A stretch of 54,949 nt of DNA, from assembly GCA_029935075.1 (NCBI GenBank), contig JAOZKZ010000001.1, positions 1 to 54,949 of the forward strand, in the 5' to 3' direction. Under the pieces are notes generated by a model. It searched no databases, was not told where the DNA came from, and was given only the letters and a program-made list of their open reading frames with translations. Of the stretch, positions 92 through 32,627 are shown piece after piece. The stretch's first letter is position 1. Every line of letters starts with the position of its first letter. A program made the position numbers and the translations under genes. This DNA comes from Campylobacterales bacterium. Its GTDB lineage: Bacteria; Campylobacterota; Campylobacteria; Campylobacterales; QNZT01.

Positions 92-379
92 ATGTTCAAA
101 GAAATATTTCAAGAAAAGTACAAAATACCAAAGGACGATGGTCCTCTTATAAGAGCCAATGAGTTCATAGTATCAGTAAATGGTAAAGAAAAATTTCATT
201 ACAAAGGTGGTAAAACATCTTACTGGAAAAGATCAGAGAAATACGCTTCCAGTACCAGTACTGGACCCGAGTGGGAGAAATTCGCTAAAAATAGCAGCAC
301 TGATGCCAATGCTAAAATGATAGTTCAGTGGTTAATGGATGATGGGTTTGATGTTTCTGATGTTGATATAAAAAGTTAG
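92..379 (+). CDS. hypothetical protein (start revised from ORF-track 56)
   Basis: The track start GTG 56 and the ATG at 68 lie inside or at the -10 hexamer, so they would not be transcribed from it. ATG 92 follows AAAGGA with the window-typical 5-6 nt spacing. The protein begins MFKEIFQE (leader-like). Confidence 0.6.
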   Translation: MFKEIFQEKYKIPKDDGPLIRANEFIVSVNGKEKFHYKGGKTSYWKRSEKYASSTSTGPEWEKFAKNSSTDANAKMIVQWLMDDGFDVSDVDIKS

Positions 380-3228: not shown

Positions 3229-3852
3229 ATGAAAGAAATGGCAAGGGATACTGGTATTCACCACAGCGGTGCTTTTGGAGGGGTAGGTGATTGGGAGTAT
3301 TACCAAAAACACCCAGAGTTTATTGTATTGGTTAATGATAAAATAAGTTCAAAAAATTACAGTATATATAAAACAAAAGGACAAAGTTACTGTACTTATT
3401 ACCTTGTCCAAGGGGATACATACAAAGGGAAGATTTCAGGAGGGATTGATAAAAATACCTTTACTATAAAAGAAACTGATTCTAAACTAAAAAGAGGGTT
3501 TTATGAAATTATGTTTTTGGTATTGTTGACCATGTATAACAAACTATTATCAGACACATCATTAAGCACACAAGCAATAAATAGTTATACCAAATTGAAT
3601 AAAAATAAAACCAAAAAGTTCAGCATAGGTGTACAAACCACCCAAGGGGATGAGGAGTTTTCTAAAGAACTTTTACTAAAAGCTGATTCAAACAGAGTGA
3701 TTATACAGGGTGATCAAAAATATCTTAATGAGTTCTTTGATGATTACTACAAAAGAATCAATCAAACGGAAAATGACAGACCATCAGCATTTAGAAAAAT
3801 GTTCTTAAATAAAGACGAAACACTAGATAGACATATGTTTGGTGTAAATTAA
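3229..3852 (+). CDS. hypothetical protein, paralog of 4132-4776
   Basis: Shares GDWEY, LVNDK.SSK.Y..YKT, GFY.IMF, LSTQAI.SY.KL and YYKRI.QTEN..PS.F.KMF with 4132-4776. Confidence 0.7.
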   Translation: MKEMARDTGIHHSGAFGGVGDWEYYQKHPEFIVLVNDKISSKNYSIYKTKGQSYCTYYLVQGDTYKGKISGGIDKNTFTIKETDSKLKRGFYEIMFLVLLTMYNKLLSDTSLSTQAINSYTKLNKNKTKKFSIGVQTTQGDEEFSKELLLKADSNRVIIQGDQKYLNEFFDDYYKRINQTENDRPSAFRKMFLNKDETLDRHMFGVN

Positions 3853-3871
3853 AAGGAATAAAAGGAATAAT

Positions 3872-4132
3872 ATGAAAGAAACAAGACAAGAAAGAAAAGC
3901 CCGAAAAAAAGCATTCATGAGCCTGACGAAGTATTACACATTGGTACAAAACGACAGGACGGGTTATGTTCAACTAACACCAAGAGAAAAGGCATTTCAG
4001 ATGATACACGGTGTAATGGAACTTGGTTACAGGGTAAACAACCTCAAAGACATATACAAAGAAGTCCAGAACCCCAGGTCAAGAAAGAGAAACCACAACT
4101 ATACCTACCCAGAAACAGGAAATAAAAAATAA
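3872..4132 (+). CDS. small basic hypothetical protein
   Basis: ORF with an aaggaataataATG RBS, lying between the two paralogs. Confidence 0.55.
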   Translation: MKETRQERKARKKAFMSLTKYYTLVQNDRTGYVQLTPREKAFQMIHGVMELGYRVNNLKDIYKEVQNPRSRKRNHNYTYPETGNKK

Positions 4133-4776
4133 TGCTAAAGGAAATGGCAGTACAGACTGGTATTTCAGGTGACGGGGCTCATGAAGGCAAGGGAGACTGG
4201 GAATATAATAAAAAGTATAATTTCATCAAACTTGTGAATGATAAATTAGGTTCCAAGTCTTATCAAGTATATAAGACCATTACCCCTGGGATTTTTACTT
4301 ATTTTTTAACCAAAGATGATAATTACAGAGGTAAAATACAAGTACAAGAAGTAAAAAACGGAATACAGATAATAGCATCACACAAAGAAAGCATAAAAGG
4401 ATTTTATCAGATAATGTTTACTATTATGTTGAAAGAATACAAAGAGATTTATTCTGATGTGATGCTTTCTACTCAGGCAATAAAAAGTTATGAAAAGTTA
4501 TCAAAAAAACATACTTTATTTAATATATATGTAAAAGAAAACCAAGAATATATACCATTTAGTAAAGAAGCCTTGTTAAGAGACAAGAACAACACGGTAG
4601 TAATTAAGGTTCAGACCAAGAATGAAAATTTCATCAAAGAACACCTCGATGAATACTATAAAAGAATACAACAAACCGAAAACAACAAACCATCTTCATT
4701 CATGAAAATGTTTATTACTAAAGACCAAGAACTGGATCAATATTTGTTCGGCAATTTAACACAAAAAGGAAAATAA
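4132..4776 (+). CDS. hypothetical protein, paralog of 3229-3852
   Basis: TAATG overlap with the preceding gene. The paralogy blocks are listed under 3229-3852. Confidence 0.7.
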   Translation: MLKEMAVQTGISGDGAHEGKGDWEYNKKYNFIKLVNDKLGSKSYQVYKTITPGIFTYFLTKDDNYRGKIQVQEVKNGIQIIASHKESIKGFYQIMFTIMLKEYKEIYSDVMLSTQAIKSYEKLSKKHTLFNIYVKENQEYIPFSKEALLRDKNNTVVIKVQTKNENFIKEHLDEYYKRIQQTENNKPSSFMKMFITKDQELDQYLFGNLTQKGK

Positions 4777-5534: not shown

Positions 5535-6358
5535 ACCCTGAAACCCCTAAAGAACTAGACCAGTGGTACACCAGCCCTGAGACTGCCAGTATTTGCATAG
5601 GGTTTATGAAGCCTTATATGAAAAAGAATATCCTTGAGCCTTCTTGTGGTACAGGGGTGTTCATCAAGCTGTTGGAATCAATGGGTTATAATATCAAGGG
5701 ATTTGACATAGACCCCAAGACCCCAGAAGGTATAAAGAAGGATTTCTTCTTGGTCAAAAAGGATGACATTTTAAAGGACTCGGTAACCATAGGGAACCCT
5801 CCTTATGGTAAAAAAGGCAAATTAGCCCAAGGGTTTATTAACCATGCCTTGAGTCTCTCTGATACAGTAGGGTTTATTGTGCCTTTGACTTTAAGTACTT
5901 CTTACACTGCCCAGAAACACATCAACGAAAATGCTTCCTTAATCCTTGAGGAACCTCTTCCAAAGAATAGTTTTGTGTTCAAGGGTAAAACAAAGGATGT
6001 AAAAAGTGTTTTTCAAATTTGGAGTTTAGTAACAAACCAAAGAGACCTAAGGCTCAAAAAACCCCAGACACAGCATCCAGATTTTGAGACCAGGATTTAC
6101 AACAAGACCCAAGGTGCCTTGAAATATCTCGATTGGGACTGGGACATTGCTATTAAAAGAAATACAAAAAACGGGGAGTTTATTACCGAAGGGAAAGCCT
6201 CGGCTGATTACCATTGGATGCTCGTTAAGGTAAAGAACAAAGAAATCCTAAAGAGGTTTCTTAAGATAGACTACACCAGGATAAACGATAACAAGATGAC
6301 AGCAGGGATGGGGAAGGCTGATATTGTTAAGGCTTATTTAGAGGTTAAGAAATTTTAA
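5531..6358 (+). CDS. N6-adenine DNA methyltransferase (gamma-class-like)
   Basis: QWYTSPE, motif I EPSCGTGVF, motif IV GNPPYG. The TTG start overlaps the upstream stop (TTGA). The conserved QWYTSPE lies upstream of the first ATG, which supports the TTG start. Confidence 0.8.
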   Translation: MNPETPKELDQWYTSPETASICIGFMKPYMKKNILEPSCGTGVFIKLLESMGYNIKGFDIDPKTPEGIKKDFFLVKKDDILKDSVTIGNPPYGKKGKLAQGFINHALSLSDTVGFIVPLTLSTSYTAQKHINENASLILEEPLPKNSFVFKGKTKDVKSVFQIWSLVTNQRDLRLKKPQTQHPDFETRIYNKTQGALKYLDWDWDIAIKRNTKNGEFITEGKASADYHWMLVKVKNKEILKRFLKIDYTRINDNKMTAGMGKADIVKAYLEVKKF

Positions 6359-7736
6359 CCCATCCTATATTTTCTAAGTTCTTTACATTTTGTACTTTAA
6401 CTGTTGGGTTTAAGCCAAATACACGATTTTGGTATCTTAAATGTAAATCTATCTGGGCATAATTAGGGGAAATAGAAACCTCTTGTGCTTCAGTGGTTAT
6501 TTTTATGGTAAACATAACACCAGCAACACCCTTCCCCATCTTATAGTTTATGTCTGTTTTTTTTACGATTAGCTTATTCTCACTAAATTCATTAGAAGAC
6601 GGGACATAGTATAGTTCTTTTAACGATTGATAAAAATATGGATTATCAGCAATAGCCAGTTTCTGCATAATCTCAGAATTTGTTGAGAACGATTCAAAGA
6701 CCATTTCAGATATATTCTTCGCTAGTGTATTATAAACCAAATCCGATAACTTTTTAAATTCACTGCTATTTTGAATAGCGTAATTTCCAAACACAGCATA
6801 ATGTGGGTTCGTTGTTGCTATATTGGTCTTTTGTTTTAAATTTGTTTCGGTAAATTTGTATTTACCTTCTGGGGTTTTATCGTCATCAGGATCAACTAAT
6901 TTTTCTTTACCTGTCCCTGATTTGTATTTTATATAAAATACTTTTTCTTCTTTATTGTACATTATATAGTAATGAGAATCTTCTGGGGTTTCACTACTAA
7001 ATGTAAATTTTTTCCCAGGTTCTTTTTTTACTAATTTTATAGCACTCGTGACTACCTTTTTTTTCCAATTAAACCAATAAGAATCTCCCGAGGATTGCCC
7101 TGTTTCTCTATCTCGACTATATTTTGATATGGCATCTTCACCTCTGTTTGTTGTTAGTTTTAAAGAATCTGGTGACAGGCTTTTTAATGTTACGGCATTT
7201 ACCGATTTAACAGATATCCCAGCAACAACAGTATCAAACCCTACATCATCTGGTGCTGCTGTGCCACTTGCATTTTGCAACCCTGCCCAAGAAAATTGAC
7301 TAGGTTTGGTTTTTTTAGTTTTTGTTAAATATTCAGTGACTTTTAGTCTAAATGTTTCTGAAATGCCAAAAGATGACATAAATAATTTTTCATCATAAAA
7401 CCCATTTAATGCTTCGGCTATTAGAGAAAGGGTCAACTCAGAGTTGTTTATCTTTTTCTCATCAAAATAATCTTTTAAATACTCCGTTGTGAATATTATA
7501 TCTTTTGATTTTTTAGCTTCTTTTAAGTTGTTTTTTTCAAAACCTTTGAAGTCACCGTTTTGAGCATATGCTAATAAACAAGGAATTTCAGAGTTGTATT
7601 TTGTTTTGTCTGATGTTCCTCCTTCGTTTATACTCTCTTCGTTTATACTCTCTTCGTTTGAACATCCAAAAAAATACTCTGCTAAAAAAACACTCTTATG
7701 TTTACATTCCTCACTTAAATATTCCTTAAACCCCAT
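6345..7736 (-). CDS. hypothetical 463-aa protein, the only convincing minus-strand gene
   Basis: Long ORF. On the minus strand the RBS is aaaggc plus 5 nt before the ATG, and a TATAAATA box lies upstream. The N-terminus MGFKEYLSE matches the shared leader. It carries an in-frame NEESI NEESI NE repeat. Its 3' end overlaps the methyltransferase gene by 14 nt. Confidence 0.75.
   Translation of the reverse strand: MGFKEYLSEECKHKSVFLAEYFFGCSNEESINEESINEGGTSDKTKYNSEIPCLLAYAQNGDFKGFEKNNLKEAKKSKDIIFTTEYLKDYFDEKKINNSELTLSLIAEALNGFYDEKLFMSSFGISETFRLKVTEYLTKTKKTKPSQFSWAGLQNASGTAAPDDVGFDTVVAGISVKSVNAVTLKSLSPDSLKLTTNRGEDAISKYSRDRETGQSSGDSYWFNWKKKVVTSAIKLVKKEPGKKFTFSSETPEDSHYYIMYNKEEKVFYIKYKSGTGKEKLVDPDDDKTPEGKYKFTETNLKQKTNIATTNPHYAVFGNYAIQNSSEFKKLSDLVYNTLAKNISEMVFESFSTNSEIMQKLAIADNPYFYQSLKELYYVPSSNEFSENKLIVKKTDINYKMGKGVAGVMFTIKITTEAQEVSISPNYAQIDLHLRYQNRVFGLNPTVKVQNVKNLENIGWVKIS
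7622..7659. repeat. 15-bp tandem repeat, 2.5 copies (cttcgtttatactct)
   Basis: Read at 7622-7636 and 7637-7651, with a partial copy at 7652-7659. On the minus strand it encodes NEESINEESINE in gene 6345-7736. Confidence 0.9.
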
Positions 7737-7751
7737 CTTGTGCCTTTCTAA

Positions 7752-7759
7752 TATTTATA
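7752..7759 (-). promoter_or_regulatory. candidate late promoter box TATAAATA for the minus-strand gene
   Basis: The plus strand reads tatttata, which is TATAAATA on the minus strand. It lies 15 nt upstream of the minus-strand ATG at 7736. Confidence 0.45.
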
Positions 7760-7763
7760 AATA
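7756..7763 (+). promoter_or_regulatory. candidate late promoter box TATAAATA for the paralog array
   Basis: Exact TATAAATA 15 nt upstream of ATG 7779. It overlaps the minus-strand box by 4 nt. Confidence 0.5.
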
Positions 7764-7778
7764 CTACAAAGGCTAAAA

Positions 7779-16939: not shown

Positions 16940-17379
16940 TGTATAAATTTATCAAAGAGTTAGAAAAAGACATAAGAAGAGAATCTAATATGTATTTTAT
17001 GTTCGAGGACATAAACCAAGAATACAAAGACAACATGACTATTTTGTTCAATTCTTTGATACAAGAGACTATCACCTCAGCAGTGTCTTATAAAATACAA
17101 TCAGAAAAAGTAATAGGTATAAAAGCCAATGAGCAAAAAGAAGCCCTAATAGAGCAATCCAAGGCTAAGTTCAACCAGTTTAATAAACTTGTGTCTTATG
17201 CTTCATTAAGTGGTGTACTAAATGAAATCGAGTTTACCACAGAACAGGATATTATAGAATCAGCAAGGAATTACGAAGATGCTTCTAAAATAGCAAATAA
17301 AGAAGGTGACACCAAGACCAGGGTATTTTTAGAAAGCCTGATGGACGAAGACCTCGAATTTTATGATAAACAAAACTAA
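16939..17379 (+). CDS. hypothetical protein (GTG start)
   Basis: GTG overlaps the upstream TAG by 1 nt and follows gaggag plus 5 nt. Confidence 0.5.
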   Translation: MYKFIKELEKDIRRESNMYFMFEDINQEYKDNMTILFNSLIQETITSAVSYKIQSEKVIGIKANEQKEALIEQSKAKFNQFNKLVSYASLSGVLNEIEFTTEQDIIESARNYEDASKIANKEGDTKTRVFLESLMDEDLEFYDKQN

Positions 17380-17388
17380 AGGAAAATA

Positions 17389-17946
17389 ATGACATTTAAA
17401 GACTACTTAACAGAGGATACAAGAGAAATACAAGAGGATAAAATAGCCGTGCTTTTATGCCTGGCTGAGAATGAGATTCTGACTGAATCTTACATGAGCG
17501 AGGCAGTAATTCTCGAGGGTGTTAAAGATTGGCTCAGTAAAGTGGGACTCAAGGTTCACAAAGGCGATGGTGTTATTGACTATGTTAGACAATTCAGCAC
17601 AGGTGCCGGGAAGCTTATTCTCGCTGCCATAAGAGGTGACAAAGAAGAGGTCAAAAGAATTGCCATGAGCCTTGACAGAGCCAAGGTAGTGGATTTTATT
17701 TTGAAGTTGGATCTCATCTCGCTTCACCTTATAACTGGCCCGATCCACTTTATTGACGGTCTCACGGGACTCGATTTAACAGCTAACCTTAAACATGCCG
17801 CTGAGGGTGCTAAATCAATGCTACAACAGACATGGGATGCACTGGTCCAAGTAAAAAATAACATATCAAGGGTAGTAAAAGGTGACAACCGAAAGGTTAT
17901 CTTTAATCATATCAACAATATAGAAAAAAACCTACCTAAGCCTTAG
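17389..17946 (+). CDS. hypothetical protein
   Basis: MTFKDYLTE leader. RBS is aaaggaaaataATG. Confidence 0.65.
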   Translation: MTFKDYLTEDTREIQEDKIAVLLCLAENEILTESYMSEAVILEGVKDWLSKVGLKVHKGDGVIDYVRQFSTGAGKLILAAIRGDKEEVKRIAMSLDRAKVVDFILKLDLISLHLITGPIHFIDGLTGLDLTANLKHAAEGAKSMLQQTWDALVQVKNNISRVVKGDNRKVIFNHINNIEKNLPKP

Positions 17947-17947
17947 A

Positions 17948-18733
17948 ATGATAGAACAAAAAGCTTGTGTTTACTGGATTACTTACTCAGGGGATAAACA
18001 CCCTAAGAACTATATAGGGTCTGTTTATACAGAGAAAATATCACAAGGATATATGGGTTCTTGTAGTTCTAAAAAATGGGCTGATATAGTCAAAAAAGAA
18101 CAAAAAGAACATCCTTGGTTATACACAGTAAAAATCATACATGAATGCGACACAAGAGAAGATGCCGGTATCATGGAAGGCTTGATACAAAAGATGTATA
18201 ATGTGGTTAACTCAGATGATTTTTGGAATATGTGTATTTCACATAATGGGCATATATATACCTGTAGAAAAGGTATAGAACCTTGGAATAAAGGCAAAAG
18301 AGGAGTTTATTCTGAAAAAACATTAAACCAAATGTCCGAATCGAAAAAGGGTGTGAAATTTCACACACCCGAATCCAAAAAACTACTAAAAGAAATAAAC
18401 ACTGGTGAATTAAATGCTTTTTATGGAAAACATCACACAGAGGAACTTAAAGCTCAATGGAGATTGGACCGTAAAGGTACTCAAAAAGGTGATAAAAATA
18501 GAAATGCCAAGTCAATAAATATATACAACGAAAATGGTGTATTACAGTATAGTTGTTTTGGTAATTTTATAGATACTTGTAAACTGAATAATCTGCCTAG
18601 TGCCGCATTGGGTAAATCATACAGAAACAATGGCGAACCTTTATATCAATCACAATCACCCCAGGCACACATACAAGAGCGATATAAACAATTCAAAGGG
18701 TGGTATGCTGTGTTTACCAAACCTAAGCCTTAA
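17948..18733 (+). CDS. GIY-YIG homing endonuclease (I-TevI/Seg-like) with NUMOD3-type DNA-binding repeats
   Basis: CVYWITYSGDKHPKNYIGS (GIY...YIG); downstream REDAGIMEGLI...N; repeated PWNKGKRG / SESKKG / FYGKHHTEE linker motifs; C-terminal helix-turn-helix-like segment. Confidence 0.85.
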   Translation: MIEQKACVYWITYSGDKHPKNYIGSVYTEKISQGYMGSCSSKKWADIVKKEQKEHPWLYTVKIIHECDTREDAGIMEGLIQKMYNVVNSDDFWNMCISHNGHIYTCRKGIEPWNKGKRGVYSEKTLNQMSESKKGVKFHTPESKKLLKEINTGELNAFYGKHHTEELKAQWRLDRKGTQKGDKNRNAKSINIYNENGVLQYSCFGNFIDTCKLNNLPSAALGKSYRNNGEPLYQSQSPQAHIQERYKQFKGWYAVFTKPKP

Positions 18734-18899
18734 TGAACCCAGGCACCACAAGGGTAACCCCCGAGTGGTGTTACAAAGAGTTATACCAAAAGGGAATAAA
18801 TCACCACCTGAGTAAACATCAATCTAATCTGTATGCCGTGAGGTGTACATGGAAAATGTATATTTACTATACTACTGGGGTGAAACCTAAAGGAAAAAG

Positions 18900-19715
18900 A
18901 TGAAATTTAAAGAATACCTAAAAGACCCTAAAGACCTCAATGAGTACATAAACAACAACTCAATGGAGAAAGAATGGAGTCTTATTCTTAAGGGTTGGAT
19001 TCCATTAAGACCAAGCCTTTTGGACTCTATGGAGATAGACAAGGTGTATCATGTGACTGATATAGCGAACTACGACAACCTAATCAAATATCAAAACCAG
19101 AAAAAGCAAATTTCCACTTTCACTAAAGGTAAAGAATGGCTGGCTTCTGGTGCCCGGACAAGGGGTGGTGTATTGGTAGAACTTAGGGGTAAAACGGTAT
19201 TCGTTTCGCCTAGTGACCTTTTCAGTGCCTTGTCAAGAAATGGTTACAGATGGATACAACCATCATTAGGTATGAAAAGATCAAGGGCTTTTGCCACCAA
19301 GGTTCAAGAAAAAGTATACCAGTATCTAAGAGACCAGACTAATTCCAACAAGATTCCTAAAAAAGTAATGGTAGGTTTGTTGTCAACCGCTGGCATAAAC
19401 CCTTTGTATAACCTTGTAGACGAACTCCCAAAAAATGAAAAAAGAGATTTTATTAAGTTTTACTTTGACCTGATAAAAAAGGAAATGAATAAACAAGTAA
19501 AAGACGATATCTTTAAGGATTTATTAGAACTCCAGGATGGAAATATATCCAATGAGGTGCTTTTGCATGACTACAAAATCATAAAGACATGGAGCATAGA
19601 CCAAGAATACGAAGACGAGAACAACCTTATACATAATTACATAGAAAAGAATGGTATCAATTACCAAGGCATGATAAAAAGAACCGTCCTTAATGACATA
19701 AAGAAGCTAAAATGA
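18900..19715 (+). CDS. divergent relative of the 7779-14439 family (retains His)
   Basis: MKFKEYLKD leader; VYHVTD; KYQNQKKQISTFTKG; GVLVELRGKTV; NGYRWI; FYFDLIKKE; SNEVLLHDYKI. Confidence 0.7.
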   Translation: MKFKEYLKDPKDLNEYINNNSMEKEWSLILKGWIPLRPSLLDSMEIDKVYHVTDIANYDNLIKYQNQKKQISTFTKGKEWLASGARTRGGVLVELRGKTVFVSPSDLFSALSRNGYRWIQPSLGMKRSRAFATKVQEKVYQYLRDQTNSNKIPKKVMVGLLSTAGINPLYNLVDELPKNEKRDFIKFYFDLIKKEMNKQVKDDIFKDLLELQDGNISNEVLLHDYKIIKTWSIDQEYEDENNLIHNYIEKNGINYQGMIKRTVLNDIKKLK

Positions 19716-20287
19716 AATTTAAAGAATACCTGAAACAAGACCTAAAAGACTTAAATGAATCAACCTTGACTATTTACCACGGGGATAATCACGAAACCAA
19801 AAAAATAGACCCTAAGTTGATGATGAACGGTAATGTTCAAGAAGGAATAGGGATATATTTCGGTAACCTTGTGGTAGCCAAATCTTATGGCAAAGATATA
19901 GTCCAGGCTGAGGTGAACCAAAAGGATTTTAAACCAAGCAGAGGAACAGTCAAAAGAAACCTTAAATTAGCATACAATATACTAAGAGACCTTTGGCATA
20001 TTGACCCTGAGAGTATGTATTATCTTATTACCGATTGGGTAGAAATAGTAGAAATAGAAGACATTACTCATGATGACATAAGACTATTAGCCCAAAAAAT
20101 GGGTTCTGATGAGGTCAGGAATTTTCAGATTACCCTTGCTGAGGCATTTGGTGTAGAGAATTTTGTAAAAATATGGAATAAAGTATACCCAAAGAACACA
20201 GGGACTTATGATAAAGATACTGGTTTTTATGCTATAATAAACCCTAAGGTACCTTTAGTTCCTTTTAAGGAACAAGATGAAATTTAA
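19712..20287 (+). CDS. small protein with PARP-like H...Y...Y motif spacing (candidate ART fold)
   Basis: MKFKEYLKQ leader; LTIYHG (His23), GIGIYFG (Tyr49), AKSYG (Tyr59). Confidence 0.65.
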   Translation: MKFKEYLKQDLKDLNESTLTIYHGDNHETKKIDPKLMMNGNVQEGIGIYFGNLVVAKSYGKDIVQAEVNQKDFKPSRGTVKRNLKLAYNILRDLWHIDPESMYYLITDWVEIVEIEDITHDDIRLLAQKMGSDEVRNFQITLAEAFGVENFVKIWNKVYPKNTGTYDKDTGFYAIINPKVPLVPFKEQDEI

Positions 20288-21047
20288 AGAATACCTGAAA
20301 GAGACTGAGATGAATGAGTACACCAAACACAAATTATCCGAGCTTATAAGCCTCAGGGCTATCCCTCTTTCTGAACCTATGATGAAAAGATTAGGATATT
20401 ATTGGGAAGACACCGTGGTGTATCACCTTACTAACTCCAAGAACCTCCCTGGGATGACAAAAGACCAGAACAAAAAAGCCCATATTTCTACATTTTCTAA
20501 GGGTGGTGCCGAGCTTGCCCGTTTACCATCTCAACCTGATGTACTTCTTAGGCTCAAGGGTGACGAGGTAATCCAAGGAAAATCTGATATATGGAGCCTT
20601 ACAGACACTCAGAATAGAAGATGGCTGGATATTAAAACGGATTCCAAAGGCGGTGAAACACTGTATAATTTTCTGAATGGGGTCTTACAGAAAGTCCTCA
20701 ACCAAAATGACTTAAACATAGAGCTTCAAAGAGGGAAGTCATTCGGTGGTGACAGAAACCTTGAGGTAGAGCTTAATAAGCTCACTAAAAAGCAAAGAAG
20801 TAAAATATATGGTATGTATATAGAAGAGGTAGAAAGATTCTTGAACTCTAGCTACAAGTACCTGAATACTTATCTTAATAACCTCAATCAGTTCCATTAC
20901 AATGAAATCATCCTAACGAATTGGGAAATCCTTGATGTAAAAAGCATAGAGATAGAATCCCCTTTGACTGTTAAGATGTGTGCCGAGCTTGGGTTGGTTT
21001 ATTCAGGGGTTATTCCAAGGAAGAGACTCTCTGGTTTGGTGATTTAG
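20277..21047 (+). CDS. divergent relative of the 7779-14439 family (retains His)
   Basis: MKFKEYLKE leader; VYHLTN; DQNKKAHISTFSKG; LLRLKGDEV; NRRWLD; YNEIILTNWEI. Confidence 0.7.
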   Translation: MKFKEYLKETEMNEYTKHKLSELISLRAIPLSEPMMKRLGYYWEDTVVYHLTNSKNLPGMTKDQNKKAHISTFSKGGAELARLPSQPDVLLRLKGDEVIQGKSDIWSLTDTQNRRWLDIKTDSKGGETLYNFLNGVLQKVLNQNDLNIELQRGKSFGGDRNLEVELNKLTKKQRSKIYGMYIEEVERFLNSSYKYLNTYLNNLNQFHYNEIILTNWEILDVKSIEIESPLTVKMCAELGLVYSGVIPRKRLSGLVI

Positions 21048-21090
21048 TTTTAAGGTTAATATGGTATAATATGGTATAATACGGTATAAT
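21048..21090 (+). promoter_or_regulatory. early promoter with three tandem -10 elements
   Basis: ttttaaggttaat followed by atggtataat atggtataat acggtataat (21061-21070, 21071-21080, 21081-21090). Confidence 0.65.
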
Positions 21091-21106
21091 ACAACAAAGG
21101 AAAAAT

Positions 21107-21457
21107 ATGAAAAGATTTAAAGATTTATTTGAAAAAAGAGAGCAATTAGATGTGGAAAAAATAGGTATAGATATAACCAACGATGGTGAAGATATAGATC
21201 AATTTGAAATATACCTAACCGTAGACACTAATGACATAGAAGATTCAGGGGCTGACTATGGTGAAGATGATAGTTATACTTGGGTTTATGATTGGATACC
21301 AAAAGATAAAAGAGCTAAAAGTCTAATAAAAAAATATAAATTAGAAAAACTTATAGATAAACTTGAATTTACTAGTGGTAAATGGTCGCCAAATCGTTTC
21401 AAAGATGACACTACTGCCTGGGTTGATATAGGAACACAAGATAGTAGTATGTATTGA
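21107..21457 (+). CDS. hypothetical acidic protein
   Basis: MKRFKDLFE leader-like start. RBS is aaaggaaaaatATG. Confidence 0.6.
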   Translation: MKRFKDLFEKREQLDVEKIGIDITNDGEDIDQFEIYLTVDTNDIEDSGADYGEDDSYTWVYDWIPKDKRAKSLIKKYKLEKLIDKLEFTSGKWSPNRFKDDTTAWVDIGTQDSSMY

Positions 21458-21807
21458 TGAAACCTAAGCAAATAATAATCATAAGAAAAGACCTCAATAT
21501 GACCAAAGGTAAATTAGTAGCCCAGGGGGCTCATGCTTCACTTTTGGCATTCCTTAAGGCTGATGAAAAAATCAAAGAAGAATGGCTCAATGACGACTAC
21601 ACCAAGATAACCCTTGGGGTCAAGTCCGAAGCCAAATTACTCAGTGTATTCAATATAGCTGTGCTAAAGGGACTCCCGGTGGTATTGATAAGAGACCAAG
21701 GATACACAGAGTTCCCGGAGCCTTGTAATACATGTGTAGGGATAGGTCCAGTATACCCAGATGAACTTAAAGGTGTCACCGATAAGCTACAGACACTAAA
21801 GGACTAA
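21457..21807 (+). CDS. peptidyl-tRNA hydrolase, PTH2 (archaeal/eukaryotic type)
   Basis: Near full-length motif match to PTH2: IIIRKDLNMTKGKLVAQGAHAS, W....TKITLGVKSE..L, LIRDQGYTEF, CVGIGP, VTDKL. ATG 21457 overlaps the upstream stop (TGATG); the track start at 21454 is a TTG. Confidence 0.85.
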   Translation: MKPKQIIIIRKDLNMTKGKLVAQGAHASLLAFLKADEKIKEEWLNDDYTKITLGVKSEAKLLSVFNIAVLKGLPVVLIRDQGYTEFPEPCNTCVGIGPVYPDELKGVTDKLQTLKD

Positions 21808-21808
21808 A

Positions 21809-22786
21809 ATGAATTTTAAAGAATACTTAGAAACAGGAATAGAGAGAACAGAGGTAAAGACAGAGGCGGTTATTACCAAGTTTGAAAAAGACGAACTCAA
21901 GACCATTCAAGAAATCCTTTGTATCATCAAAGACCACAAAGGCAAGCTGACCTATAGAGGGTTCAGTGGCATGAACCAGACCATAGGCACCGTGTCTAAT
22001 AAAAGAAGCAGTTTTTACGGTGCCTTGAGAAAAGAAGTCCATAGTTTCATCAAAGGACCCCTTGGTGTGAAATACCCTACCTTTGCCACCACGGATGAAA
22101 CCCAGGCTATGATGTTCGGGCAGACCTTTATATTCGTGTCCAAAGGGACAGGATATGTTCATACTTATATGAGAGATATTTTATCGGATACCACAGAAGA
22201 TACTAATTTTGAGGGAATGGAGAAAGGTTTCACCAAAGGCGATATAGATGATGTTTCAAAAAGAGCCATGGGTGAAATCATAGTAGACACCCCTGAGTAT
22301 TATCTGATAAATTACAAATACCTGGCAGGGGATTTCAGGTCTAAGTTTTTCAAGCCTAAAAAAGAGGCAAAAGACTGGCAAGATGTCTATGACCTTTTAT
22401 ACAATATACTGAAATATGAAAACTGGAAGATAAAAAACAACAAAAGAGATTCTTTTGAGGTAAACCAGCAAAAGCAAAAGAAAATGAAACTAGACCGTGA
22501 AAATGCCATTATTAATATGTACTCAAAGAAGCAAAGAGACCTAAGACTAAAGACAATAAGACAAGACACATTAAAGCACAAATTGCCTTTAATACAGTCT
22601 CAAAAAGAAATAAACAAAGTCCAACACTTACATAAATCAGACGGCAAGAGCATAACCCTGACATTCAAATACAAAAAAGACCCTAAAGTGATCTTGAAGT
22701 ATTATCAAGACCACGAAGAAAAGTTCAGCTCTGAGAATATGACAAGGTTCATTCGAGTACAAGGGTATGATTTAATTCTGGTTTAG
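21809..22786 (+). CDS. hypothetical protein, possible Arg-type ART-like N-terminal domain plus K-rich tail
   Basis: MNFKEYLET leader; KLTYRGF; about 43 aa later TFATTDETQAMMFG, which can be aligned to STFT....IFWG of the tandem family. No clear ExE motif. Confidence 0.65.
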   Translation: MNFKEYLETGIERTEVKTEAVITKFEKDELKTIQEILCIIKDHKGKLTYRGFSGMNQTIGTVSNKRSSFYGALRKEVHSFIKGPLGVKYPTFATTDETQAMMFGQTFIFVSKGTGYVHTYMRDILSDTTEDTNFEGMEKGFTKGDIDDVSKRAMGEIIVDTPEYYLINYKYLAGDFRSKFFKPKKEAKDWQDVYDLLYNILKYENWKIKNNKRDSFEVNQQKQKKMKLDRENAIINMYSKKQRDLRLKTIRQDTLKHKLPLIQSQKEINKVQHLHKSDGKSITLTFKYKKDPKVILKYYQDHEEKFSSENMTRFIRVQGYDLILV

Positions 22787-22789
22787 CGG

Positions 22790-22822
22790 TTTAAGTTTAT
22801 TTTAATCATTTTGTGGTATAAT
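22790..22822 (+). promoter_or_regulatory. early promoter cassette
   Basis: tttaagtttattttaatcattttgtggtataat, with TATAAT at 22817-22822. Confidence 0.65.
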
Positions 22823-22839
22823 ACCATAAAGGATTAAAA

Positions 22840-23352
22840 ATGGACTCTAGGAAAGTATTATACAACAAAGTAGGGAATGATGAAAATTACACCCCTTTTT
22901 ATGGCGTAGAGCCTATTTTAAAATACATACCCCGGGGTGCGGTAGTTTGGTGTCCCTTTGATACCCCTGAGAGTGAATTTGTCAAACAAATCTCCAATCA
23001 GAATAAAGTAGTCTTTTCTCACATAGACGAGAGTAAGGACTTCTTTGAATACGAACCAGAAAACTGGGATATAATTGTATCCAATCCTCCCTTTAAAAAC
23101 AAAAAGCTATTTTTCCTGAGGGCATTAAGCTTCAATAAACCCTTTGCTCTTTTGATGACCCTTGCATGGCTGAACGACTCGGCACCTAAAAAAATATTCA
23201 AGGATAAAGCCTTGGAGCTTTTGATGTTCGACAAGCGAATAAAATTTACTAATCCAGATGGCAGACCTAACAACAAAATCACATTTTCTAGTGCTTATTA
23301 TTGTCATGATTTTTTGCCCAAGCAAATAATAATGGAAGAACTTAGCACCTAA
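22840..23352 (+). CDS. small N6-adenine methyltransferase-like protein
   Basis: IIVSNPPF (motif IV, [DN]PP[YF]); VVWCPFDTPESEF (motif I-like); NYTP near the N-terminus. Confidence 0.6.
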   Translation: MDSRKVLYNKVGNDENYTPFYGVEPILKYIPRGAVVWCPFDTPESEFVKQISNQNKVVFSHIDESKDFFEYEPENWDIIVSNPPFKNKKLFFLRALSFNKPFALLMTLAWLNDSAPKKIFKDKALELLMFDKRIKFTNPDGRPNNKITFSSAYYCHDFLPKQIIMEELST

Positions 23353-26668: not shown

Positions 26669-28273
26669 TTGATAGAATTAGTAGAAGGAAAAGAACACAT
26701 TGTTATAAAAAGGAACGGGACACCAGAGCCTTATAACGAACACAAAATGAAAAAAGTCCTTATGTGGGCTTGTAATGATAAAGAGATGTATGTCAAAGAA
26801 CTCTTAAATGACATAGAACTTAAAGTGTTCAATAAAATATCCATACAGAAATTATTTAACGAGGTGATTGAAACCTGTGCCAATAAGATTTCGGATATGT
26901 ACCCAGTCTGGGACGAGGTAGCAAAACGGTTGTATATCCAAAAGATTTACAAAGAAACCTGGGGTATAAAGAGAACACAATACCCTTATTATGGTGATGT
27001 CCTAAGTAAAGGCACCCAGTACGGGGTGTATGATTCAGATGTTATTGATACCTTTACCGAAGAAGAAATCAAGATGCTGGATGAAGCCATCAAACCAGAA
27101 AGAGATTTTGATCTGACTTACCTAGGCTTAAGGGTTTTTATTGACAAGCAAAGCAAACACTACACGGTTACAAAACCCTTGGAGCTACCTCAACACGGGT
27201 TCATGAGACTGGCTTTATTTGCCTTTTATAAAGAAATTGATCGTATTCCTTTGATTATACAAAGATATAATGACCTGAGCTTATTGATGTATTCAGAAGC
27301 AACACCTAAATGGATGAACTCTTTGTCGAAGAACCCTCAGATGGCTTCGTGCGTGGTCTCGAAGCTACCCGATAACTCATGGGGGATTAATAAGACCATT
27401 TCTAACCTTGGGTTGTTTTCTAAACACGGTGGGGGCTTGGCATGTGATGTATCAAGCATCAGGGCTACTGGCTCAAAAATAGGTAAAAACGGGGTCTCAA
27501 GCGGACCTATTCCATTTATCAAAATGATAGAATCTACCGTGAATGCCTATAACCAAAACGGCTCAAGACCAGGGGCATGTGCTGTTTACTTCTCTTGGTG
27601 GCATTATGATTCACCAGAGATGTTAGAGCTAAAAGAAGAAGGGGGTACAGAAGACCGCAGAGCAAGGAACCTTAAGTATGGCTTAAAGTGGAATGAACTG
27701 TTCACTCAAAGAATACTTGATAACAAAGATATTACTCTTTTTGACCCCAAGGAAACCCCTGAGTTATTGACCACTCACGGGGAAGAGTTCGACAAATGGT
27801 ACTGCTTCTATGAGAACAAAGATCGTATCAAGAAAAGAAAAATGAAAGCAACCGAACTAGCATTTAGCATCACCAAGCAAAGAATAGAAACAGGCAATAT
27901 CTATATATTTTTTGAAGAGAATACCCAGAATCAGAACATCTTTAAAGAGCAGATTTTTAGCTCAAATTTATGTGTATCTGGCGATACTAAAATTAGTATA
28001 GAAACTAATGATGAAATAAAAATGATTGAAATACAAGATTTAGAATATTATATCAATACAGAAGTAAAGGTATTATCAATGAACACAAAAACATCAAAAA
28101 AATCTTATAAAAAGATAACTGATTTTGCTATGACTTCAAAAAAGGCTAAAGTGATTAAAATTACACAAGAAAATAATACTATAACATGTACACCAGAACA
28201 TAAAATATATACAAAAAGAGGTTATATAGAAGCTCAGTTTTTACAAGAAAATGATGAGATAATTTATGAATAA
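26669..28273 (+). CDS. nrdA: ribonucleotide reductase alpha, N-terminal fragment (434-aa N-extein) fused to a 100-aa split-intein N-half
   Basis: TTG start after aaagga plus 5 nt. ATP-cone-like VIKRNGTPEPYNEHKM. The extein ends at SSNL. Cys435 (27971) starts CVSGDTKI (intein block A), followed by TCTPEH (block B), and a stop comes after 100 intein residues. Confidence 0.9.
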   Translation: MIELVEGKEHIVIKRNGTPEPYNEHKMKKVLMWACNDKEMYVKELLNDIELKVFNKISIQKLFNEVIETCANKISDMYPVWDEVAKRLYIQKIYKETWGIKRTQYPYYGDVLSKGTQYGVYDSDVIDTFTEEEIKMLDEAIKPERDFDLTYLGLRVFIDKQSKHYTVTKPLELPQHGFMRLALFAFYKEIDRIPLIIQRYNDLSLLMYSEATPKWMNSLSKNPQMASCVVSKLPDNSWGINKTISNLGLFSKHGGGLACDVSSIRATGSKIGKNGVSSGPIPFIKMIESTVNAYNQNGSRPGACAVYFSWWHYDSPEMLELKEEGGTEDRRARNLKYGLKWNELFTQRILDNKDITLFDPKETPELLTTHGEEFDKWYCFYENKDRIKKRKMKATELAFSITKQRIETGNIYIFFEENTQNQNIFKEQIFSSNLCVSGDTKISIETNDEIKMIEIQDLEYYINTEVKVLSMNTKTSKKSYKKITDFAMTSKKAKVIKITQENNTITCTPEHKIYTKRGYIEAQFLQENDEIIYE

Positions 28274-29157
28274 TTATATGAAAGAAGTCCAAAATATTTG
28301 TTTAACAGCATGGATAAGACCTAAACAAGATGATATAGATTATGAAAAACATCATTATTGTCCTCGGTCTTTAGGAGGATCAGATGATGAAAATAATATA
28401 GTAGATTTGACATTACAAGAGCATTTTAAAGTCCATTTGTTGCTAGCCCAACATTATATTGAAGTAAAAGATAAAAGCAAGTCTGATAGTATGATAAGTG
28501 CTTGCTGGATGATGTCAAACAGAGGTAAATATAATGAAAAATATATGGCAACTCCTGAAGAGTATGAATTTTTAAGAAAAAAACACAAAGCAATAATGAA
28601 AACAAAAATGTCAAAAACAATGACAGGTAAAATGCCTGTATATGATATTAACGATGACGATAGAAAAATTTTTCATGCTTCTGTAAACGACCCTATGGTA
28701 AAAAGTGGAGAGTGGGTACACCATACAAAAGGATCGAAAACATCAAAAGAAACACTAAAAAAATTAAGTGATGCCTTTTCTGGTGTGAAAAATCCAAGAT
28801 ATTCCGGGATAACCGATAACGAAATAATTGAATATAGTTTAGAATTATTTAATATTTTAGGGTTCATTCCTGCATTAAGTAATGTTAGAAGATGGACAAA
28901 ATTAAAATATAATGTTGATATACCTAAACATTTTACTAAATTTAGATTCCCTGATAAATCGTGGAAAGAGCAAATGGAAGAACAAACAAACATGACATAT
29001 AACCGTTATCAACGAGGTAAAAATAGATTAAAAATTAGAGAAGTATTGAAGGAACAAAATGTTAAAAATTGAAATACAAGAAAAAGAAATCCCTGTTTAT
29101 GATATAACGGTTCAAGACAACGAAAACTTTTTTGCTAATAATTTATTAGTTCATAAC
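27971..29157 (+). mobile_element. split mini-intein (Int-N 27971-28270, Int-C 29059-29157) with a free-standing HNH homing endonuclease gene between the halves
   Basis: Blocks A and B are at the end of the first ORF. Blocks F and G (VYDITVQDNENFFANN, LLVHN then +1 Cys at 29158) are at the start of the third ORF. Joining the exteins restores the RNR motif SSNL-CGEISIP. Confidence 0.85.
28266..29072 (+). CDS. HNH homing endonuclease
   Basis: KHHYCPRSLGGSDDENNIVDLTLQEHFKVH (HNH motif). It overlaps both nrdA fragments by a few nucleotides. Confidence 0.8.
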   Translation: MNNYMKEVQNICLTAWIRPKQDDIDYEKHHYCPRSLGGSDDENNIVDLTLQEHFKVHLLLAQHYIEVKDKSKSDSMISACWMMSNRGKYNEKYMATPEEYEFLRKKHKAIMKTKMSKTMTGKMPVYDINDDDRKIFHASVNDPMVKSGEWVHHTKGSKTSKETLKKLSDAFSGVKNPRYSGITDNEIIEYSLELFNILGFIPALSNVRRWTKLKYNVDIPKHFTKFRFPDKSWKEQMEEQTNMTYNRYQRGKNRLKIREVLKEQNVKN

Positions 29158-30108
29158 TGCGGAGAAATATCCATTCCTGCTATTAGTCCAAAAGAACCAA
29201 GGGCAGTCCTTTCCAAAGATTTTGATAATAACATCAAGCTTAAAGAGTCCTTTGACCCAGGGATGATTGCCCTGTGTAACCTGAGTTCAATAAATGTAAT
29301 CAAATGGATAACACTTTCCGATAAAAAGAAAGAAAAAATGACCTATAATCTTTTAAGGGCTTCTGATAATCTCTTGGATTATGCTTTTTATCCGTCCAAA
29401 GAAGGCGAGGTTTTCAATAAAAACTACAGGGCTATAGGGATAGGGATTACTAACTATGCCCAGTTTTTAGCCCAGGGTAAGCTGAAGACCAAAAGCAAAG
29501 AAGCACTTAAAGAGACCAATGACCTCTTGGAGGATATTTACTACTTCTTGATGAAAGGGAGTATAAAATTAGCCAAAGAAAGGGGCAGATATTCGGAGTA
29601 TTTCAGCTCTGAGTATTCCAAAGGAAATCTTATTTTTGACTTGTATCAGGGGCCTTATAATTTTAGGTTAAATAGAGATTGGAAAGAAATAAGAGAAGAC
29701 CTGAAGCAATCGGGAGCAAGGTTCAGCACATTAATGGCTATAGCCCCCACCGCTACGAGTTCACTTATACTAAATTCGACCGAGGGCATAGAGCCACCAC
29801 GGCAATTAGTCTCAATGAAAACAGGGACTTATACATGTAAGCAATTAGTCCCTAATATAAAGAAACTAAGACAAGATTATGAACTAGCCTGGGATATTGA
29901 CTCTTTTGATATGATTAACCTGAGTTCAGCACGGCAAAGGTTCATAGACCAAGGTCAGTCTTTGTCCTTGTATTATAAAGACAGGAACGAGTCTGCCACA
30001 GAGGTACTAAAAGATATTATATATGCCGAGAAAATGGGACTAAAGAGTCTTTATTATGCATTTACATTACAGCAAGATATAGAAGAGTGTTTGTCTTGTT
30101 CAGTTTAG
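29059..30108 (+). CDS. nrdA: 33-aa split-intein C-half fused to ribonucleotide reductase alpha C-terminal fragment (316-aa C-extein)
   Basis: RBS is aaggaacaaaATG. It starts MLKIEIQEKEIPVYDITVQDNENFFANNLLVHN, then CGEISIP. The C-terminal redox pair is ECLSCSV. Confidence 0.9.
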   Translation: MLKIEIQEKEIPVYDITVQDNENFFANNLLVHNCGEISIPAISPKEPRAVLSKDFDNNIKLKESFDPGMIALCNLSSINVIKWITLSDKKKEKMTYNLLRASDNLLDYAFYPSKEGEVFNKNYRAIGIGITNYAQFLAQGKLKTKSKEALKETNDLLEDIYYFLMKGSIKLAKERGRYSEYFSSEYSKGNLIFDLYQGPYNFRLNRDWKEIREDLKQSGARFSTLMAIAPTATSSLILNSTEGIEPPRQLVSMKTGTYTCKQLVPNIKKLRQDYELAWDIDSFDMINLSSARQRFIDQGQSLSLYYKDRNESATEVLKDIIYAEKMGLKSLYYAFTLQQDIEECLSCSV

Positions 30109-31574: not shown

Positions 31575-32240
31575 GTGCTTGAACACATAAACACCCTACT
31601 AAGCATAGATTATACCCAAGTAGGACTAAAAGAAATAGTAAAGATTAAAAGAACCCTTAATGCCTTTAAAAGACAATACGAGAGGTATGAATACAGCGAT
31701 GACTACATATCCTTTGATGAAACCTTAATGAACTACGAGATTTTTCTGATGGTAGCCCTTGGACCATTGAAAGATCAAACCCGTTATAAAATTTCAAGAT
31801 TGAAATATGTAGTGAACGATTTAGTAGTAAATATCACAGAGGAAAGGATACTTGATTATTTCGAGTACACACAAGAACAGCAAAAAAACCTCAAACTTAG
31901 ATTTGGTTCCTTTGGTTATGAGATACCAGAGTTCATAGATATATTATCTTATGCTAAAAAGGAACTGGAGCTTTACTACCTGGATCAGAAAAGCCACTCT
32001 TTGAGGGTAAAGTATCTTCATTTCAAGAAAAACCCAGAGAATGTATTACTATATAAAGACGATTTGTATAAAATTTGTACAAAAGACCAAGACCTTATAG
32101 ATGTAACAGAAGTGACCTTTGATACCAAGTGGGGGATAAGATATAACGAGTATTGGGTAAACCCCTTGGAATATAAAAATAAAAACCCGGAGGAACACCA
32201 GGATATCCTGATGCATTTTAACCCTGAGCTGTTTCTTTAA
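31575..32240 (+). CDS. hypothetical protein (GTG start), ends NPELFL
   Basis: GTG follows aaagga plus 5 nt. Confidence 0.6.
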   Translation: MLEHINTLLSIDYTQVGLKEIVKIKRTLNAFKRQYERYEYSDDYISFDETLMNYEIFLMVALGPLKDQTRYKISRLKYVVNDLVVNITEERILDYFEYTQEQQKNLKLRFGSFGYEIPEFIDILSYAKKELELYYLDQKSHSLRVKYLHFKKNPENVLLYKDDLYKICTKDQDLIDVTEVTFDTKWGIRYNEYWVNPLEYKNKNPEEHQDILMHFNPELFL

Positions 32241-32294: not shown

Positions 32295-32627
32295 ATGAAA
32301 TTTAAAGATATGAGCAAGTTTTTTAACATAGGAGATACTATTAAGGTTGGTTCGATTGAAAACCTAACAGATGATGTTTATGCAATGCCTAAAATGATGG
32401 GTAAATTCCTAGGAATTAGTGAAGATAACATACCTGATGTAATGATTTTAACTATTGATTGGTCGGCATTTGACGATATTAATATCCCTTTGGAAAGCCA
32501 TGATTGGTATATTGATACCAATGGAAATCTTGGGACAATGAAAGAAGCCGACATATACCCTATAGATGGGATCGAGACACTTTTTGTTATGAAAGAAGAT
32601 ATTGTTAATTTTTCAAAGGAGAAATAA
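32295..32627 (+). CDS. hypothetical protein
   Basis: RBS is gaggagagaagATG. It starts MKFKDMSKF. Confidence 0.6.
   Translation: MKFKDMSKFFNIGDTIKVGSIENLTDDVYAMPKMMGKFLGISEDNIPDVMILTIDWSAFDDINIPLESHDWYIDTNGNLGTMKEADIYPIDGIETLFVMKEDIVNFSKEK

Follow-up and report, generated by a model that had tools for sequence, protein, structure and literature searches.

The 54,949-bp contig JAOZKZ010000001.1 (GenBank assembly GCA_029935075.1; the whole stretch is hereafter called the window), which is assigned to a Campylobacterales bacterium, carries between positions 7730 and 21815 about 19 mostly unrelated genes that share an N-terminal leader with the consensus M-x-F-K-[DEN]-Y-L-x-E. An earlier note on this DNA had listed 22 such N-termini, and all of them were present as written when we read them from the translations. 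Eighteen were graded as strong carriers (7736 on the minus strand, and 7779, 8635, 9434, 10260, 11036, 11832, 12695, 13537, 14439, 15654, 16260/16263, 16679, 17389, 18900, 19712, 20277, and 21809), one as intermediate (16939), and three as weak (92, 21107, and 32295). Each of the three lies downstream of a copy of TGGTATAAT, an early-type promoter motif, and was graded weak because of its motif alone; early promoters were dropped as an exclusion criterion because repeats at the internal-protein (IP) loci of T-even phages have been tied to early promoters (PMC2839356). Six-frame translation of the window yielded 19 matches to F[KR][DENK]Y[LMF]: 18 lay at residue 2-3 of open reading frames (ORFs) with 84-461 further codons, all within 7730-21815, and the 19th was in a noncoding frame. 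The leader occurs far above chance.

At the left end of the cluster stands a gene for a 463-amino-acid (aa) protein (6345..7736), which is the sole minus-strand member and also carries the leader (MGFKEYLSE/E, where the slash marks the predicted cleavage site); the leader therefore follows gene orientation. It is followed on the plus strand by a tandem array of eight paralogs spanning 7779..14439 (7779-8645, 8635-9432, 9434-10258, 10260-11039, 11036-11830, 11832-12677, 12695-13540, and 13537-14439). Each begins with M[NTS]F[KR]xY[LM]; the eight are basic, with an isoelectric point (pI) of about 9 and pairwise identities of 31-52%, and their conserved C-terminal KKYQK motif abuts or overlaps the Shine-Dalgarno sequence of the next gene. 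Next come a DUF6267 protein with a predicted ligase-like fold (14439..15644; Pfam E = 6.8e-75), whose leader MNFKKYMIKRIDE/E precedes a conserved block, THLTHLDD, and a cytidylyltransferase-like (HIGH-motif) nucleotidyltransferase (15654..16238), whose leader MSFKNYLKTLD has the putative targeting half and no [LI]-x-E. The same half-leader was found on its orthologs in two other sequences, L002 and L013, the latter a 191-kb contig (NCBI GCA_029935755.1, JAPOGX010000003.1).

Further along the plus strand are a lysine-rich 136-aa protein (16260..16670; MMFKEYFNE/S, in exact 9-residue register if translation starts at 16260), an acidic 86-aa protein (16679..16939; MKFKDYLLE/Q), a ferritin-like 146-aa protein recognized by Pfam (16939..17379; a weak leader, (V/M)YKFIKELE, with the L002 ortholog beginning MFNEFLKDLE), and a 185-aa protein (17389..17946; MTFKDYLTE/D). 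Two distant members of the tandem family, at 18900..19715 (leader MKFKEYLKDPKDLNE/Y) and 20277..21047 (MKFKEYLKE/T; orthologs in L002 at 65% and in L013 at 43% identity), flank an unrelated 191-aa protein (19712..20287; MKFKEYLKQDLKDLNE/S) whose leader DNA is identical to that of both neighbors at 24-25 of 27 nt. The last strong carrier encodes a 325-aa basic protein (21809..22786; MNFKEYLET) and lies downstream of the early-type promoters at 21062 and 21072. Most of the cargo proteins are basic (pI about 9), as are the internal proteins IPII and IPIII of phage T4. Among the weak carriers, the plus-strand genes at 92..379 (MFKEIFQE/K, preceded by both TATAAATA at 26 and TGGTATAAT at 59) and 21107..21457 (MKRFKDLFE/K, downstream of two early-type promoters) are doubtful members, and 32295..32627, also on the plus strand with an early-type promoter upstream, is probably not a member: its N-terminus, MKFKDMSKF, agrees with the leader in MKFKD alone and lacks [LI]-x-E.

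Two genes in or adjoining the cluster lack the leader, namely, a GIY-YIG/NUMOD3 homing endonuclease (17948..18733, plus strand), which served as a negative control, and PTH2 (21454-21807); the leader is thus not universal among genes of the region. The endonuclease gene is a mobile interloper in mid-cluster and the only sizeable gene there without a leader. Tail-fiber genes and early genes elsewhere in the window do not carry it either. That the proteins behind the leader are often unrelated, as had been proposed, was borne out by BLASTP with the first 14 residues removed: the eight tandem genes together with 18900 and 20277 formed a single 10-member family, and the other roughly 9-12 carriers had no similarity to this family or to one another. 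No match in Pfam, PHROGs, or PADLOC was found for the 463-aa protein, the tandem family, or the products of 16263, 17389, 19712, and 21809, and PADLOC models matched none of the cargo proteins.

Within the leader, F3 and Y6 were present in 17-18 of the 18 strong carriers. The earlier note had seen [LIMF]-x-E in most leaders, and we found it ending at residue 7-16 in 16 of the 18, as well as in the intermediate carrier 16939; [LI]-x-E ending at residue 8-16 occurred in 7 of 54 control ORFs. Seven leaders in the window have no Glu at position 9, and five of these have a second [LI]-x-E that ends at residue 12-16 (again compared with 7/54 controls). A signal-peptide or secretion reading was ruled out, the leader being charged and having no hydrophobic core.

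Conservation of the leader is at the protein level. Identity of leader DNA among carriers was 72-75% over codons 1-9 and fell to about 30% in the following 27 nt, while upstream of the Shine-Dalgarno sequence it was 31-33% for pairs that included a nontandem gene and 43% for pairs within the tandem array; in control genes, both flanks stood at 29-30%. Within the leader, the first, second, and third codon positions had identities of 0.71, 0.83, and 0.54, Leu7 was encoded by five codons (TTA, TTG, CTG, CTT, and CTA), and Glu9 by both of its codons. This codon periodicity, the varied Leu7 and Glu9 codons, the confinement to 27 nt, and the second [LI]-x-E where Glu9 is missing all point to selection acting at the peptide level. 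A strict DNA pattern with the Shine-Dalgarno spacing built in matched only three contigs. The suggestion that synonymous positions are conserved too stood in part, in that TTT, AAA, and TAC are favored, and failed in part, in that third positions are the least conserved and Leu7 ranges over five codons.

The closest experimentally defined counterpart of this peptide is the capsid-targeting sequence (CTS) of T4. As read from NC_000866, ipII and ipIII begin with MKTYQEFIAE/A and ipI begins with MKTFKEFTSTTTPVSTITE/A (pattern MKTFKEF…ITE/A), and the T4 ip genes follow a AAAGGAAA ribosome-binding site that resembles those in the window. Aligned with the T4 sequence, F3 of the window leader corresponds to Y/F4, Y6 to F7, L7 to I8, and E9 to E10. 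The first 10 residues of IPIII are enough for packaging; mutagenesis has assigned targeting chiefly to residues 4 and 7, whereas processing depends on residues 8 and 10, and Asp at position 10 blocks cleavage while targeting is kept (PMC9026906). Ip1, Ip2, and Ip3 of T4 have only their packaging-directing N-terminal leader in common and each inhibit a different GmrSD-type restriction enzyme, and at least 10 leader-type internal proteins are known in relatives (PMC12373910); more than 30 IP variants have been cited over the T-even phages (PMC2839356).

Homologs outside the window brought the leader closer still to the T4 form. Among the 120 best DUF6267 homologs, which had 78 distinct N-termini, 49 of the 78 were in the exact 10-residue T4 register (for example, MLSFKQKLNE/DKNTHLEHLED, MRTFTTFLTE/QKNLH…, and MKKFSTYLKE/EKLTH…) and six were in the 9-residue register of the window, with most of the others having an aromatic start and a later Glu. 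Stenotrophomonas phage DLP_6 has the leader MMKFTQFLAE/S and Kyanoviridae phage C48C1 has MMLDFKNFITE/Q. These leaders mostly end directly ahead of the conserved block KNTHLEHLED, and the Pfam DUF6267 model begins downstream of the leader. The ortholog in cyanophage P-HM2, which begins with MSKNTHLEHLED, is leaderless, and its start falls within one residue of the position at which most leaders end. The direct comparison with T4, together with the DUF6267 homologs in exact T4 register, supports the proposal of a capsid-targeting, prohead-protease-type signal.

The tandem family was similarly widespread, with 711 clusters at 50% identity in a profile search. Of 139 representatives read, 38 were in the 9-residue register, 35 in the 10-residue register, and 23 in a looser one; one (P0188) reads MKTYQEYLVE, and an alignment of 120 representatives placed F3 (80%), K4 (73%), and L7 (68%) among its conserved columns. 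Orthologs of window carriers in L002 and L013 retain the leader at 27-75% identity, and an unrelated IMG/VR contig (L010) had seven more carriers, such as MKTFREYVNE/A and MKTFSEFINE/I. L002 has at least 12 carriers, the 21 kb fetched of L013 has six, and the complete relative C48C1 has five leader genes clustered around DUF6267 (125 of 156 kb scanned); with about 19 in the window and at least 12 in L002 against five and six in C48C1 and L013, the locus has therefore expanded. On a separate 4.6-kb IMG/VR contig (L008), a leader gene (MNFKDYINE, 995-1351) lies about 2 kb from a T4-like major capsid gene (3416-4234), the product of which is 33% identical to the capsid protein of C48C1.

The wider context is that of a T4-like marine phage. 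Megablast of 7000-23000 against phage records returned no near-identical record, and tblastn with a tandem-family member returned no match there. Sample SRR21545383 contains a 7.2-kb contig (L001) that is identical to part of the window. The DUF6267 protein, by tblastn, matched almost exclusively T4-like marine phages, comprising cyanophages, Pelagibacter phage HTVC008M, and C48C1. C48C1, P-HM2, and HTVC008M have a common gene order with the window around DUF6267, and L013 agrees with it most closely. The window also encodes a T4-type RNA ligase 1 (441-1514), an ATP-dependent DNA ligase (33447-34763), an nrdA/nrdB pair, and a tail-fiber module. In C48C1, a Peptidase_S77 protease (E = 1.9e-39) lies in a T4-like head module adjoining the scaffold and capsid genes, and the major capsid protein has FLTE/T about 57 residues from its N-terminus, a candidate propeptide site. 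By analogy with these relatives, the genome from which the window derives would be expected to encode a gp21-type protease of its own.

The extended -10 motif TGGTATAAT occurred 15 times against one expected, on the plus strand at 59, 413, 21062, 21072, 22814, 23381, 31087, 31540, 32261, 35414, 36191, 36543, and 39105 and on the minus strand at 46747 and 49383. Its intergenic copies stand ahead of gene blocks, and the set probably represents the early promoters of this phage, judging by motif and position. There were none between 421 and 21062, in agreement with the earlier observation that the gaps of 7779-21047 hold no early cassette. The TATAAATA boxes reported at 7756, 12673, and 16241 were all found again; TATAAATA corresponds to the T4 late-promoter consensus. 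The first belongs to a pair of overlapping divergent boxes (7752..7763), of which the mirror copy at 7752-7759 on the minus strand serves the 463-aa gene, each box being 23 nt upstream of a leader gene (7736 on the minus strand and 7779 on the plus strand). On the plus strand, 12673..12680 is 22 nt upstream of the start at 12695, and 16241..16248 is 19 nt upstream of 16260, so that the spacing ahead of these four genes is 19-23 nt; another copy lies 25 nt before the first tail-fiber-module gene (39854). Over the window, L002, and L013, TATAAATA copies lay 19-26 nt upstream of leader genes, as motif matches only, and a divergent pair was also present in L002 at 11470/11473. Generic sigma-70-like promoters and terminators in the cluster were at about chance level.

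Taken together, we consider it probable (at about 0.72) that the shared N-terminus is a T4-type CTS, processed by a protease, on the products of an expanded internal-protein locus. As a short propeptide, the leader would bind the scaffolding core while the prohead assembles and would thereby bring the protein behind it into the capsid. Aromatic residues F3 and Y6 would give targeting, and [LIM]-x-E (L7-x-E9 or the second [LI]-x-E slightly later) would be where a prohead protease of the gp21 type (Peptidase S77) cuts the leader off. Thereafter the mature proteins would stay with the DNA inside the head and pass into the host upon infection. Region 6345-22786 would thus be a locus of about 19 cargo genes, including the 10-member orphan family, the ligase-like DUF6267 protein, the HIGH-motif nucleotidyltransferase, the ferritin-like protein, the lysine-rich protein, and several orphans. 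We infer core binding, cleavage, packaging, injection, and the antidefense role discussed below from the analogy with T4.

Several observations weigh against this interpretation. No portal, protease, scaffold, or capsid gene was found in the 54,949-bp contig by tblastn with C48C1 queries, and no virion proteome of the lineage was found in the literature searched. The window leader is one residue shorter than the T4 CTS, and two strong members, 15654 and 21809, have no clean [LI]-x-E. Overall, TATAAATA is not enriched (12 copies against about 10 expected), and at T-even IP loci the repeated elements are built on T4 early promoters (PMC2839356), so that promoter class is weak evidence. At the DNA level, Tyr6 is encoded by TAC in 15 of the 18 window leaders, against a background of 37%, and in 8 of the 13 leaders of L002, against 24%, and adjacent leaders are more alike than nonadjacent ones (21.1 versus 20.0 of 27 nt; permutation p = 0.002), with the unrelated neighbors 13537/14439 sharing 24 of 27 leader nt and 19712/20277 sharing 25. 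The TAC bias and the likeness of adjacent leaders indicate that some nucleotide-level force acts as well.

This last point bears on the explanation, raised in the earlier note, that the DNA of the leader is the conserved unit and acts chiefly as a recombination linker or junction. The peptide would then be a by-product of a cassette junction through which genes are duplicated, swapped, or captured. Besides the likeness of unrelated neighbors and the TAC bias in two genomes, such an element would account for the overlap of the KKYQK motif with the next Shine-Dalgarno sequence, for the different gene that L013 has in place of the array, and for the repeats reported at T-even IP loci (PMC2839356). 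We nevertheless judge it very unlikely as the primary function: conservation is codon-periodic, with Leu7 alternating between the TTR and CTN families; identity is at background just upstream of the Shine-Dalgarno sequence and directly after codon 9; T4, DLP_6, C48C1, and hundreds of metagenomic homologs keep only the F/Y, L/I/V, E pattern while their DNA differs; and 27 nt with about 73% identity make a poor substrate for recombination. Conservation is also confined to 27 nt and oriented with the gene. The nucleotide-level proposal survives as a secondary effect, since adjacent copies resemble one another. We read that resemblance as local homogenization or as duplication junctions falling in leaders, which fits the tandem array in the window, a similar array in opposite orientation in L002, and the Eco57I-like gene at the corresponding position in L013; the 27-nt leader DNA has probably served secondarily as microhomology for cassette duplication and shuffling.

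Strong expression offers another account, in which the leader is a translation-initiation enhancer that supplies an A/T-rich, unstructured start and favored early codons. The A-rich leader (ATG AMN TTT AAA GAN TAC), the strong AAAGG Shine-Dalgarno sequence at fixed spacing, and the overuse of TTT, AAA, and TAC agree with it. An enhancer, however, leaves unexplained the invariant aromatic and aliphatic residues and the Glu with their varied codons, the compensating downstream [LI]-x-E, and the near-identity to the experimentally defined T4 CTS pattern; moreover, the leader is missing from the tail-fiber genes, which are certainly late and abundant, and likewise from early genes. We regard it as the least probable of the explanations considered. 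Protein-level conservation in itself says nothing of destination, and the leader might be a protein tag for something else, such as recruitment to a different phage assembly, activation or degradation by timed proteolysis, or binding to a shared partner or chaperone. Two members have no cleavage motif, and some of the cargo enzymes are leaderless, and presumably cytoplasmic, in cyanophages. Against this stand the T4 CTS as the only experimentally characterized signal of this pattern and the T4-like character of the lineage (Kyanoviridae synteny, T4 late-promoter boxes, and an S77 protease in relatives), and we find a different destination unlikely, if less so than either nucleotide-level account.

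Under the capsid-targeting interpretation, the closest known counterparts are T4 IPI, IPII, and IPIII (Mullaney & Black 1996; Repoila et al. 1994; Silas et al. 2025). They share with the window proteins a leader of about 10 (up to 19) residues as the sole similarity, the pattern M-K-x-aromatic-x-x-aromatic-[IL]-x-E, the Shine-Dalgarno context, and variable multigene loci. They differ in number (three genes in T4 compared with about 19 in one 15-kb cluster) and in cargo, for the window has a family of 10 paralogs and enzyme-like proteins of 190-460 aa; the window lineage, in addition, is a marine Kyanoviridae-like phage. T4 Alt, a packaged ADP-ribosyltransferase (ART), is a head-borne enzyme that loses propeptides to the gp21 protease (PMC9026906), and the tandem family has weak recurrent PARP/ART fold matches and an H…S-x-F…E pattern. 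Unlike Alt, the family matched no ART significantly in structure or in sequence (best E above 1), and its eight tandem copies lack the family-consensus His.

In the giant phages phiKZ and SPN3US, many head-internal proteins, both paralogous and unrelated, are cleaved behind the Glu of a short x-X-E motif, and N-termini are kept among otherwise diverged paralogs of the ejection proteins (PMC5694885). Their propeptides, however, are mostly longer than 100 residues and end in [A/S/G]-x-E, whereas the window leader has 9-16 residues and [L/I/M]-x-E, as in T4. The PeSL cassettes (early promoter plus stem-loop; Arbiol et al. 2010) resemble the leader as short repeats at gene boundaries tied to gene gain, loss, and replacement (PMC2839356), but they are noncoding, while the repeat in the window is coding, codon-periodic, and located in a region free of early promoters. 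The early promoter and stem-loop at the gene that mark a PeSL are not what the cluster has, as no TGGTATAAT lies inside it. Two further differences in gene content were seen in L013: a single 536-aa Eco57I-like gene (8345-9955) stands in place of the eight-gene tandem array, and a minus-strand leader gene (474 aa) has the same place, size, and orientation as that of the 463-aa protein, with no BLASTP similarity to it.

Structures were predicted for two of the cargo families. In DUF6267, the K59-x-D61-G62 motif is invariant, and conservation extends to E371-G372 and K383; the top 15 Foldseek matches were all DNA or RNA ligases, but at E of about 0.03 and a probability of at most 0.92, and a profile search gave no significant match to PDB sequences. 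A ligase-like assignment, for which the hallmarks in the covalent nucleotidyltransferase (ligase/capping) superfamily are a KxDG motif I lysine and the nucleotidyltransferase fold, is plausible. The AlphaFold2 (AF2) model of DUF6267 (predicted local distance difference test [pLDDT] score, 88.6) placed a low-confidence helix at residues 3-11, disorder (pLDDT below 50) at residues 12-16, where the predicted IDE/E site lies, and the domain from about residue 20. The leader was a short low-confidence helix in both this model and that of the tandem family (pLDDT 86). About half of the weak PDB matches of the latter were PARP domains; no Foldseek match to PDB or BFVD fell below E = 0.03, and nothing was significant against PDB sequences in a profile search, so that the modeled fold gives only a hint of an ART, a class with an H-Y-E or R-S-E catalytic triad.

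The wider tandem family conserves H48, S69, F71, R121, W122, and E207 (consensus H48…S69-x-F71…E207). His is found at alignment position 48 in 80% of 120 representatives and is kept in 18900 (VYHVT) and 20277 (VYHLT), while in all eight tandem copies C-F-[VIKR]-[SA] replaces it; by their sequences, these copies may be catalytically altered. Two homologs were found in larger proteins, P0171 (1353 aa), in which a cytidylyltransferase-like domain is fused to four tandem-family repeats, and P0242 (649 aa), in which a tandem-family homolog is fused to a poly(A)-polymerase/CCA-type RNA-binding segment. These may reflect a functional link to RNA nucleotidyltransferases or may be gene-call fusions.

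Systems of this kind are already known from T-even phages. New here are the occurrence and size of such a system in a marine T4-like lineage, its enzyme-like cargo, and its tie to DUF6267 and a large orphan family. In the literature searched, no paper tied either marine T4-like phages or DUF6267 to the CTS. Proteins with a T-even CTS are injected with the DNA, and each of the three studied in T4 knocks out a separate restriction enzyme of the host (PMC12373910), which makes the leader a proven marker of early-acting counterdefense proteins in those phages. More tentatively, it may mark a large unrecognized set of injected proteins in uncultured marine T4-like phages, comprising DUF6267, its partner nucleotidyltransferase, and the 711-cluster family, with about 19 diversifying effectors here; at present we would sooner doubt this broader claim than accept it. 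If it were true, about a quarter of the contig would be devoted to injected effectors, which might include RNA-repair-type or ART-like enzymes directed against host defenses, and the leader could be used as a sequence tag to mine metagenomes for antidefense candidates. The occurrence of the marker far outside the T-even phages suggests an early origin of the targeting system within the T4 superfamily. This wide occurrence also provides a first functional context for two uncharacterized families (DUF6267 and the 711-cluster orphan family) and a simple, testable way to predict injected proteins in uncultured ocean phages, and the same enzyme with a leader in some lineages and without one in cyanophages constitutes a natural experiment.

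Other features of the window lie outside the cluster. A second boundary motif was found at the opposite protein end, in small ORFs ending in …[HN]PE[YML][YFML][LF] before the stop codon (1561-1767, 2124-2378, 31575-32240, 37403-37645, 37642-37905, 37902-38165, and 39052-39300, and also in L013), with the versions ETHPEYML, HNPEYML, FNPELFL, THPEMFL, THPEYFL, DYPELYL, and NYPEDLL. The stop codon of these ORFs abuts or overlaps the next ATG, and a CCGGAGTAYT… junction precedes several gene starts in L013. The nrdA gene (26669-30108) is in two ORFs, the first ending in an intein N-terminal block (CVSGDTKISIE…) and the second beginning with a C-terminal block (…LLVHNC), with an HNH-type ORF (28266-29072) in a different frame between the halves; this resembles the published fractured-gene arrangement of a split intein plus a free-standing endonuclease. 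Among the tail-fiber-like genes, 49198-50688, 50729-51736, and 52215-52703 (and also those at 43784 and 45210) share an N-terminal module, MIK[RK]PL[YF]xF…VPL[NY]S[IV]…D[AS]DG[NS]G, and 46907-48607 and 52688-54091 consist of internal repeats (…IYQYDLST[DN]WDLSTADYATNSVN… and …SVYIYTRSGTTWSLEQEI[HN]NPSPTADD…, respectively). Finally, two paralog pairs were observed, one at 3229-3852 and 4132-4776, encoding proteins of 207 and 214 aa that begin M[KL]KEMA…TGI…G, and the other at 37642-37905 and 37902-38165, encoding two 87-aa proteins that begin M[IK]PKVGDYIRIKSKEHWNIKSYDEIYVDG.

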